Assembly: GCF_003334815.1 (NCBI RefSeq)
Contig: NZ_QOWO01000007.1
Direction: 5' to 3' (one strand)
DNA from: Escherichia coli
GTDB lineage: Bacteria; Pseudomonadota; Gammaproteobacteria; Enterobacterales; Enterobacteriaceae
Length of the DNA: 64,000 bases
Position numbers and translations under genes: made by a program
Notes under the pieces: model-generated
Databases searched by the model: none
Seen by the model: the letters and a program-made list of their open reading frames with translations, nothing else
Told to the model about the DNA's origin: nothing
Shown here: positions 51,570 through 53,833 of the stretch, one piece after another
Layout: every line of letters starts with the position of its first letter
Position numbering within the stretch: the first letter of the stretch is position 1

Positions 51570-53833
51570 CCAGGCCAGTAACGTTATCAGAACCCCATTT
51601 CAGCCAGCATACCCTGAACAAGTATGCATCGCTGATGGCGCAGGGGAACGGCTATCTTGGGCTTCGCGCCAGCCATGAAGAAGATTACACGCGCCAGACG
51701 CGAGGGATGTATCTGGCGGGGCTGTATCATCGGGCGGGAAAAGGTGAAATCAACGAACTGGTGAACCTGCCTGATGTCGTGGGGATGGAGATTGCCATAA
51801 ATGGTGAGGTTTTCTCGTTATCCCACGAAGCCTGGCAGCGTGAGCTTGACTTTGCCAGTGGCGAATTACGCCGCAATGTTGTCTGGCGTACCAGCAACGG
51901 CTCAGGTTACACCATCGCCAGCCGTCGCTTTGTTTCGGCAGACCAACTGCCGCTCATTGCGCTGGAAATCACTATTACGCCACTGGACGCCGACGCGTCA
52001 GTGCTGATTTCAACAGGCATTGACGCCACGCAAACCAATCACGGTCGCCAACATCTCGACGAAACCCAGGTGCGGGTGTTTGGTCAGCATCTGATGCAGG
52101 GGAGCTACACCACCCAGGATGGACGCAGTGATGTGGCCATCAGCTGTTGCTGTAAGGTGAGCGGTGATGTGCAGCAATGCTATACCGCCAAAGAGCGCCG
52201 TTTACTGCAACATACCAGTGCGCAGCTTCATGCAGGCGAGACAATGACGTTGCAAAAACTGGTGTGGATCGACTGGCGGGATGACAGGCAAGCTGCTTTA
52301 GACGAGTGGGGCAGCGCGTCGCTTCGCCAGCTTGAAATGTGCGCGCAGCAGAGTTACGACCAACTTCTTGCAGCATCAACAGAAAACTGGCGTCAATGGT
52401 GGCAGAAACGTCGTATCACGGTAAATGGCGGCGAAGCGCACGATCAGCAAGCGTTAGATTATGCGCTTTATCATCTGCGCATCATGACGCCTGCCCACGA
52501 CGAGCGCAGCAGCATTGCGGCAAAAGGCTTAACCGGCGAAGGCTACAAAGGCCACGTTTTCTGGGATACAGAAGTATTTTTGTTACCGTTTCATCTGTTT
52601 AGCGATCCGACGGTTGCCCGAAGTTTACTGCGTTATCGCTGGCACAACTTGCCAGGCGCGCAGGAGAAAGCGCGACGCAACGGCTGGCAGGGCGCGCTAT
52701 TTCCGTGGGAAAGCGCGCGCAGCGGCGAAGAAGAGACGCCGGAATTTGCCGCCATTAACATTCGCACCGGGCTGCGGCAAAAAGTGGCCTCGGCGCAGGC
52801 GGAACATCATCTGGTGGCCGATATCGCCTGGGCGGTTATTCAATACTGGCAGACCACGGGGGATGAAAGTTTCATTGCGCATGAAGGCATGGCGCTACTT
52901 CTGGAGACGGCAAAGTTCTGGATTAGCCGCGCGGTGAGAGTTAACGATCGTCTGGAAATTCATGATGTTATTGGGCCAGACGAATATACCGAACATGTCA
53001 ATAATAATGCATACACCAGCTATATGGCCCGCTACAACGTTCAACAGGCGCTGAATATTGCCCGCCAGTTCGGCTGTAGCGACGATGCGTTTATCCATCG
53101 CGCCGAAATGTTCCTCAAAGAGCTATGGATGCCAGAAATTCAGCCCGACGGCGTTTTGCCGCAGGATGATTCGTTTATGGCTAAGCCGGCGATTAATCTG
53201 GCGAAATACAAAGCGGCGGCGGGGAAGCAAACCATACTGCTGGATTATTCACGCGCAGAAGTGAACGAGATGCAGATCCTCAAACAAGCTGATGTGGTGA
53301 TGCTCAATTACATGCTGCCGGAGCAGTTCTCAGCGGCATCGTGTCTTGCCAATCTGCAATTTTATGAACCGCGCACTATTCACGACTCGTCATTAAGTAA
53401 AGCAATCCACGGCATTGTTGCCGCACGCTGTGGCCTGCTGACCCAAAGTTATCAGTTCTGGCGCGAGGGGACTGAAATCGATCTTGGTGCTGATCCGCAT
53501 AGTTGTGATGATGGTATCCATGCTGCCGCAACTGGCGCTATCTGGCTGGGGGCGATTCAGGGTTTTGCCGGGGTGAGCGTGCGTGACGGTGAATTGCATC
53601 TCAATCCGGCGTTACCTGAGCAGTGGCAACAGTTGTCTTTCCCTCTGTTCTGGCAGGGCTGCGAATTACAGGTCACTCTTGACGCGCAGCGTATTGCGAT
53701 TCGAACTTCTGCGCCCGTTTCACTGCGTTTGAACGGTCAGCTTATAACCGTGGCTGAAGAATCTGTTTTCTGTTTGGGTGATTTTATTTTGCCCTTCAAT
53801 GGGACCGCTACCAAACATCAGGAGGATGAATGA
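51566..53833 (+). CDS. ycjT: GH65 glycoside phosphorylase YcjT (reported kojibiose phosphorylase)
   Basis: 755 aa; overlaps ycjS stop and ycjU start by 4 nt each. Confidence 0.9.
53800..53814 (+). promoter_or_regulatory. Second copy of the candidate YcjW operator, inside the 3' end of ycjT just upstream of ycjU
   Basis: ATGGGACCGCTACCA, identical to 43871-43885; 16 bp upstream of the ycjU start. Confidence 0.4.

Follow-up and report, generated by a model that had tools for sequence, protein, structure and literature searches.

A second YcjW operator, identical in its core to the first and conserved among relatives, lies inside the 3' end of ycjT in Escherichia coli

The 3' end of ycjT in Escherichia coli holds a second copy of the operator bound by YcjW, a LacI/GalR-family repressor, and this distal operator (O2) is almost certainly functional. 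It repeats the proximal operator (O1) of the ycjM leader beyond chance, and its DNA itself, rather than the peptide that it encodes, is under purifying selection. The DNA analyzed (the window) was a single stretch of 64 kb, to whose first letter all positions below refer. Both the binding site and its occupancy in vivo are already known, because O2 was mapped by two genome-wide studies (Luhachack 2019; Gao 2021). With the site published, observing it again adds nothing new to E. coli regulation; the DNA-level selection on O2 is a new result here.

Gene order within the window was pspABCDE, ycjMNOPQRSTUV and ompG, followed by ycjW on the opposite strand (Table 1). The 601-bp stretch around O2 was 100% identical to K-12, where it is annotated as ycjT (kojibiose phosphorylase) and pgmB/ycjU. 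Unlike in MG1655, ycjV is intact here, so this strain is not MG1655 itself. O1 and O2 are separated by 9,928 bp; the annotated ycjM ATG (43898) lies just downstream of O1, and the ycjU ATG (53830) overlaps the ycjT stop codon TGA (53831-53833) in the form ATGA. The cognate LacI-family regulator at the locus is YcjW, which is homologous to CcpA, PurR and LacI and has the dimeric repressors CcpA and PurR as its closest solved relatives. No operator-like match was found in the region upstream of ycjW itself. At the other end of the locus, the terminator-like hairpin after pspE marks a possible source of read-through into the ycj operon.

Table 1. Coordinates of the two operators and of neighboring genes and elements in the window
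Feature	Coordinates	Strand	Description
Terminator-like hairpin after pspE	43699-43720	+	
ycjM promoter	43834-43862	+	TTGACA 43834-43839, 17-nt spacer, TAGTCT 43857-43862, 9 nt to O1
Proximal YcjW operator (O1), ycjM leader	43872-43885	+	14-mer identical to O2; inside EMSA probe LL58 (Luhachack 2019)
ycjT (kojibiose phosphorylase)	51566-53833	+	O2 sits in the variable C-terminal tail
TATTTT, sole -10-like hexamer near O2	53785-53790	+	9 nt before O2, the same gap as at O1; weak candidate
Distal YcjW operator (O2)	53800-53813	+	14-bp core TGGGACCGCTACCA; from sequence, ChIP-exo footprint and invariant third codon positions
ycjU ribosome-binding site and start codon	53820-53832	+	AGGAGG 53820-53825, ATG 53830-53832
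Genes downstream of O2	53830-56535	+	ycjU/pgmB 53830-54489, ycjV 54503-55585, ompG 55630-56535
ycjW, LacI/GalR-family repressor binding O1 and O2	56646-57644	-	PF00356 and Peripla_BP domains

The original prediction had placed a second copy of the YcjW operator at 53800-53814, inside the 3' end of ycjT and 16 nt before the ycjU ATG, and both the copy and its placement were borne out. These 15 nt read TGGGACCGCTACCAA. The core ends at 53813 and is an exact, 14-bp copy of the site in the ycjM leader; the identity of O1 and O2 extends to 15 nt when the preceding A is counted. From the end of the core to the ycjU ATG there are 16 nt, with 6 nt between O2 and the AGGAGG, and the site covers ycjT codons 745-750, from Asn745 to Lys750 (Asn-Gly-Thr-Ala-Thr-Lys). 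Its halves, TGGGACC and GCTACCA, form an imperfect palindrome with a central CG in which 10 of 14 positions are self-complementary, and O2 is thus built as operators of the LacI/GalR family are (14-16 bp, imperfectly palindromic, with a central CG).

For any given 14-mer, the expected number of further exact copies on the two strands of 64 kb is 4.8e-4. When up to two mismatches were allowed, shuffles gave a mean of 0.28 matches, and two or more matches occurred in just 2 of 100 shuffles. The degenerate motif TGGKANCGNTMCCA was found exactly twice in each complete orthologous locus of ~20 kb, in the same two places, with the exception of one locus (L006) in which the distal copy carries a T10C change. 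O2 also fits TGGKAsCGyTmCCA, a pattern derived from the narP and cyaA probes together with the O1 of Budvicia.

Occupancy by YcjW, which the original prediction had named as a check, was positive at O2 in both published ChIP-seq and published ChIP-exo. The two most enriched regions in ChIP-seq of FLAG-tagged YcjW lay before the ycjM start codon and "between ycjT and ycjU", and both contain the 14-nt motif (Luhachack 2019, PMC6599011). Among 64 YcjW ChIP-exo sites, the strongest was no. 20 (1378133-1378162 in NC_000913.2), which was assigned to ycjU and had a signal/noise of 1664.9 versus 840 for ycjM (Gao 2021, PMC8464067, Dataset S4). Coordinates were converted by using the MG1655 record (ycjU start at 1380148 in NC_000913.3), with the narP site as a control, whose peak center fell exactly on TGGTAGCGTTACCA. 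Converted in this way, the 30-bp footprint of site no. 20 maps to about 53791-53820 of the window, and its center is the center of the motif. The ChIP-exo peak at ycjM, by comparison, is offset from O1 by 118 bp. The EMSA probes of the earlier of the two studies were taken from ycjM, narP and cyaA, and ycjU was not among them (Luhachack 2019, PMC6599011); because the core is identical to that of O1, which EMSA validated, YcjW would be expected to bind the O2 copy in vitro.

Orthologous loci were compared across 14 lineages, namely the Escherichia clades, Pseudocitrobacter, Citrobacter sedlakii, C. amalonaticus, C. rodentium, Salmonella enterica subsp. arizonae, the Enterobacter cloacae complex, Klebsiella aerogenes, Yokenella, Leclercia, Trabulsiella, Scandinavium, Superficieibacter and Budvicia. 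The C. amalonaticus locus (L008) was left out of codon analyses owing to its many frameshifts. The O2 core was kept in 13 of the 14 lineages, being identical in nine and carrying a single substitution in four (C9A in S. arizonae; position T10 in Scandinavium, Superficieibacter and Escherichia sp. MOD1). In all 13 it lies at the 3' end of ycjT, 12-19 nt upstream of the ycjU ATG. The remaining lineage, Budvicia, has an O2 that has decayed to TGCGAGCAGTGCCA and an intact O1. O1 was conserved in every locus from which the ycjM leader was recovered.

The part of YcjT in which O2 is encoded varies greatly, with 10% of the last 30 alignment columns invariant at the amino acid level versus 42% for the whole protein. 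Across the 11 operator-bearing lineages, the amino acid is invariant at 139 fourfold-degenerate codon columns of ycjT, and the third base was invariant in three of them, all within the operator (Gly746 GGG, Thr747 ACC and Thr749 ACC). Because only operator codons keep an invariant third base, selection is placed on the DNA. This fourfold-site test in 11 lineages took the place of a run-length test of invariant nucleotides over the whole operon in three species, by which the operator was not singled out; overall invariance among those species was 67%, and S. arizonae has the central C-to-A change.

Expression was taken from the qRT-PCR source data of Luhachack 2019 (PMC6599011), as ycjW deletion over wild type (n=3). 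Fold changes were 28, 45 and 62 for ycjM (mean 44.8), 20, 22 and 26 for ycjT (mean 22.2), 40, 58 and 39 for ycjU (mean 45.5), and 34, 47 and 40 for ompG (mean 40.4). Derepression of ycjU and ompG was therefore ~2-fold above that of ycjT, at nominal significance (Welch p 0.016 for ycjU and 0.008 for ompG). This step argues for something YcjW-dependent between the ycjT and ycjU amplicons, and it is explained equally well by a roadblock to transcription or by a weak internal promoter. Since ycjT also differs ~2-fold from ycjM, primer or baseline effects are possible.

Any internal promoter at O2 would be weak and would lack conservation. Scores were computed with a simple sigma-70 position-weight model, calibrated on the operon's 12,500 sense-strand coding positions (maximum 8.2). 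The ycjM promoter, used as a positive control, scored 11.8 and so exceeded all 12,500 coding positions; its layout, TTGACA-17-TAGnnT, is also present in Enterobacter (14.0) and Budvicia (11.8). Upstream of O2, the best candidates scored 3-5 (98-99.5th percentile), which is the chance level over the 66 positions scanned. No -35 element was found upstream of O2 in any species, no extended -10 was found, and zero nucleotides in this region are invariant across lineages. A scan for consensus promoters near O2 gave 0 matches. That scan overlooked the evident ycjM promoter as well, since TAGTCT agrees with the consensus at no more than 3 of 6 positions. No CRP-like site was found near O2, and CRP-dependent activation there was rejected on this ground, with window-wide matches at or below chance.

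The single -10-like hexamer near O2, TATTTT, scored 3.1 in its register (98.5th percentile of the coding background) versus 11.8-14.0 for the ycjM promoter, and is composed of Phe-Ile-Leu codons without a -35 element. Escherichia, C. sedlakii, C. rodentium and Superficieibacter carry it. When any -10-like hexamer in the 20 nt before O2 was counted, whatever its position, 8 of 12 lineages had one, with a combined p of 2e-4, a value inflated by shared ancestry and by constraint on the Phe-Ile-Leu codons. Such a hexamer was absent from the other 4 of the 12 lineages, namely Enterobacter, Leclercia, Trabulsiella and Scandinavium, which keep O2.

In the searchable portions of the Cappable-seq and SMRT-Cappable-seq supplements, queried by coordinate prefix and by ycj names, no start sites were found near the operators; the operon is repressed under standard conditions. 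A literature search for a mapped ycjU transcription start returned only the YcjW paper. In the ChIP-exo table, which was obtained under repressing conditions, O2 is not flagged as bound by RNA polymerase, and the ycjM site is likewise unflagged (PMC8464067).

O2 can be set against O1 (Luhachack 2019; Gao 2021), with which it shares an identical core, the repressor, the inducer and the strand, and to which it is similar in its distance to a ribosome-binding site and ATG. The two differ in their surroundings: O1 is non-coding and covers about +2 to +15 relative to a strong and conserved sigma-70 promoter, whereas O2 is found 9.9 kb farther downstream, within the ycjT frame and without a recognizable conserved promoter. 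Because conservation of O2 does not go together with that of any promoter, an action that is independent of a promoter is favored. We tentatively prefer, at close to but short of an even chance, that O2 acts on transcription coming from upstream, as a roadblock or second checkpoint.

According to this proposal, YcjW dimers would bind the 14-bp palindrome in the last ycjT codons and obstruct RNA polymerase coming from upstream, be it through leaky transcription from the ycjM promoter, psp read-through or spurious intragenic starts. The polymerase would then halt ahead of the ycjU ribosome-binding site. Kojibiose or a related sugar would cause YcjW to leave O2, as at the identical O1, and the inducer would lift the block at O2 along with that at O1. 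O2 would in this manner provide ycjU, ycjV and ompG with a second repression checkpoint that answers to the same signal as O1.

As a roadblock would call for, O2 is a high-affinity site within a transcribed region, 9.9 kb downstream of the ycjM promoter, and it gives the strongest ChIP-exo signal. The ~2-fold extra derepression of ycjU and ompG fits a ~2-fold block at O2. PurR and CcpA are textbook roadblock repressors, the former at its operator in purB and the latter at cre sites inside reading frames, and the likeness of YcjW to both lends the proposal a supporting resemblance. What these cases would have in common with O2 is a dimeric LacI-family repressor and a CG-centered palindrome in transcribed coding DNA. 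They differ in distance: a few hundred nt separate the purB operator from its promoter, but O2, where the roadblock is putative, lies ~10 kb downstream and at a gene junction within the operon. Further points weigh against a roadblock: a single dimer in a translated region usually makes a leaky one, ycjT messages ending at a polymerase stalled on O2 would have no stop codon, and the -10-like hexamers of 8 of 12 lineages include one in Escherichia that has the same register as the ycjM promoter.

A weak internal promoter is a possible but rather unlikely alternative. It would use TATTTT as its -10 and start near 53797, with YcjW occupying roughly +3 to +16, an arrangement like that of the ycjM promoter, and on induction it would raise expression of ycjU-ycjV-ompG, the last genes of the 12.7-kb operon. 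Operators of the LacI family usually overlap promoters, and the layout at O2 (-10-like hexamer, 9 nt, operator, ribosome-binding site, ATG) is like that of the ycjM promoter; the 8 of 12 lineages with a hexamer within 20 nt and the ~2-fold greater derepression of ycjU and ompG over ycjT also count in its favor. In their placement, internal operon promoters that carry the regulator site of the main promoter are comparable, having the operator directly upstream of an internal ribosome-binding site and downstream genes that are slightly more derepressed, but at O2 the promoter elements and transcription start are missing or unconserved. An insert between the EcoRI and PstI sites of pBR322 can be read from vector promoters. 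Complementation of a ycjU::Tn5 mutant was obtained with a pBR322-borne fragment corresponding to 53435-54833, which was termed 'ycjU with its promoter region' (Han et al. 2010). This result agrees with an internal promoter but is not diagnostic, because vector read-through can explain it. Against the alternative stand the score of 3.1, which is at chance over 66 positions, the lack of a -35, an extended -10 and a CRP-like site, the make-up of TATTTT from Phe-Ile-Leu codons, the four lineages that have O2 without a -10-like element, the variability of the sequence upstream of O2, the want of a mapped start in the literature search and the missing RNA polymerase flag, although the last applies to the ycjM site too.

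The original prediction had further proposed that an internal operator would make ycjU-ycjV-ompG a separately regulated unit. Of this proposal, the operator stands as genuine and occupied, as does the higher derepression of the genes behind it in the ycjW deletion. A promoter is not evident, and the unit would not be 'separately' regulated, because O1 and O2 share the 14-mer, the repressor and the inducer. The appeal to a mixture of AT-rich and GC-rich genes in the operon fails, since GC content within the operon peaks in ycjU (0.565) and falls inside ycjV, not at O2. The GC content was 0.438 for ycjM, 0.50-0.56 for ycjN through ycjT, 0.490 for ycjV (0.535 in its 5' half and 0.445 in its 3' half) and 0.499 for ompG, which differs little from the 0.514 of the whole window. 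With the break lying within ycjV, composition gives no module boundary at O2.

It is improbable that O2 is an auxiliary operator that strengthens repression of ycjM, either through a DNA loop that joins O1 to O2 or by keeping a store of YcjW close to the ycjW gene. In favor of this role, O1 and O2 are identical, conserved and highly occupied, and precedents are found in lac (O2 and O3) and gal (OI). The lac O2 within lacZ and gal OI resemble the present site in that the operon has a second operator within one of its structural genes. They differ in that looping there spans 92-401 bp and relies on tetrameric LacI or HU-assisted GalR, whereas YcjW has no tetramerization tail and its sites are 9.9 kb apart. 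YcjW has 332 aa, of which residues 4-319 align to LacI 5-313, leaving neither the LacI tetramerization tail nor a C-terminal extension, and it is predicted to be a dimer when modeled on PurR. Looping is unlikely because of the 9,928-bp spacing, the lack of that tail and the dimer model, and a tetramer-based loop was rejected on the length and alignment of YcjW and the spacing. A reservoir role, for its part, needs no fixed distance of 12-19 nt to the ycjU ATG.

That O2 is bound without regulatory consequence and is conserved through constraint on the YcjT peptide Asn-Gly-Thr-Ala-Thr is very improbable: although the site is coding and Gly-Thr-Ala-Thr is nearly invariant in operator-bearing lineages, synonymous third positions are fixed only here among the 139 comparable codons, the tail around it is only 10% invariant in amino acids, Budvicia has changed the peptide (Ala-Ser-Ser-Ala) along with its decayed motif, and the DNA of O2 is identical to that of the non-coding O1.

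The preferred roadblock reading leads to a wider one, which is plausible but which we would put at somewhat less than even: O2 may be a dedicated intragenic, promoter-less elongation checkpoint, conserved across the Enterobacteriaceae, for which synonymous positions in the codons of the YcjT tail provide the room. Polymerases that set out from the stress-induced psp operon, or that result from leaky or spurious initiation, would be halted at O2 before ycjU, ycjV (a transporter ATPase gene) and ompG (a large-pore porin gene). The latter is reportedly silent in laboratory strains. Mutations in ycjW have repeatedly been selected in mouse colonization experiments, and the ycj system appears to matter in the gut. 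If O2 works on the distal genes as a roadblock, it would represent well-conserved natural control of elongation by a LacI-family dimer, with the operator encoded in synonymous sites, and would be a clean natural LacI-family roadblock ~10 kb inside an operon.

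In Budvicia, the proximal YcjW operator in the ycjM leader (O1) was retained and reads TGGTACCGCTCCCA. The position of the distal copy at the ycjT/ycjU junction (O2), by contrast, was degenerate (TGCGAGCAGTGCCA, without the central CG), and the YcjT tail peptide was altered alongside it. Given that O2 has decayed while O1 has been kept, the distal site is either dispensable or lost in the Budvicia lineage. Coordinates for these and all other features are collected in the table below.

Coordinates of features at the ycj locus and its orthologs (L numbers denote loci from other enterobacterial lineages)
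Feature	Sequence	Coordinates	Strand
CRP-like element, E. coli	window	43759-43774	
CRP-like element, Enterobacter	L015	~2866-2881	
CRP-like element, Budvicia	L014	~2862-2877	
ATG overlapping O1	window	43871-43873	
Sequence 3' of O1	window	43886-43897	
'ycjM' ChIP-exo peak, published	NC_000913.2	1368320-1368355	
'ycjM' ChIP-exo peak, converted	window	~43979-44015	
Budvicia O1	L014	2961-2974	
Budvicia O2 position	L013	~13885-13900	-
Region compared with MG1655	window	50830-56700	
Indel	window	near 55462	
ycjV	window	54503-55585	
C. rodentium ompG-ycjU gap	L021	8034-9194	
ycjW	window	56646-57644	-

The sequences immediately 3' of the operator also resembled each other at the two sites, with O1 of E. 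coli compared to the stretch downstream of O2 in L012 and L011. E. coli O1 reads ACCACGGAAAGG, K. aerogenes O2 reads ACCACGGAAGGAAAG, and Enterobacter O2 reads ACCACGGAGGGG. A module of operator plus ribosome-binding site may have been duplicated, or a common constraint may act at both sites.

Published YcjW ChIP-exo data include a 'ycjM' peak with a signal/noise of 840 (Gao 2021, PMC8464067). When converted to the window, this peak fell within ycjM, ~118 bp downstream of O1, and no YcjW-like motif was present under it; the mapped narP and ycjU peaks, by contrast, coincided exactly with their motifs. An artefact of the table or of peak calling could account for the offset, as could a displaced cross-link.

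An ATG in frame with ycjM overlaps O1 (cATGGGACC) and opens a reading frame of 568 aa, versus 559 aa annotated. Because ycjM starts at or beside O1 in the ORF listings or gene calls of some other species (C. sedlakii, Enterobacter), the true position of the start codon deserves a check. Roughly 100 bp 5' of the start site of ycjM, E. coli, Enterobacter, and Budvicia share a conserved CRP-like half-palindrome (TTTGC-N6-TCACA), a possible site for catabolite control, or for another regulator, of the ycjM promoter.

The window strain is not MG1655. The compared region differs from MG1655 by two SNPs and then an indel; many E. coli genomes were 100% identical to the window across it. As a result of the indel, ycjV is an uninterrupted reading frame of 360 aa, versus the frameshifted pseudogene (ycjV plus ymjB) of the K-12 annotation. 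In C. rodentium, the 1.1-kb gap where ycjV is expected held no called gene, and the gene may be a pseudogene in this species too, like its K-12 counterpart.

No operator-like motif was found in the region upstream of ycjW itself. In germ-free mice colonised by E. coli, ycjW mutations were selected repeatedly (bioRxiv 10.1101/2020.12.04.412072), and E. coli therefore seems to benefit in the gut from having the ycj operon derepressed.
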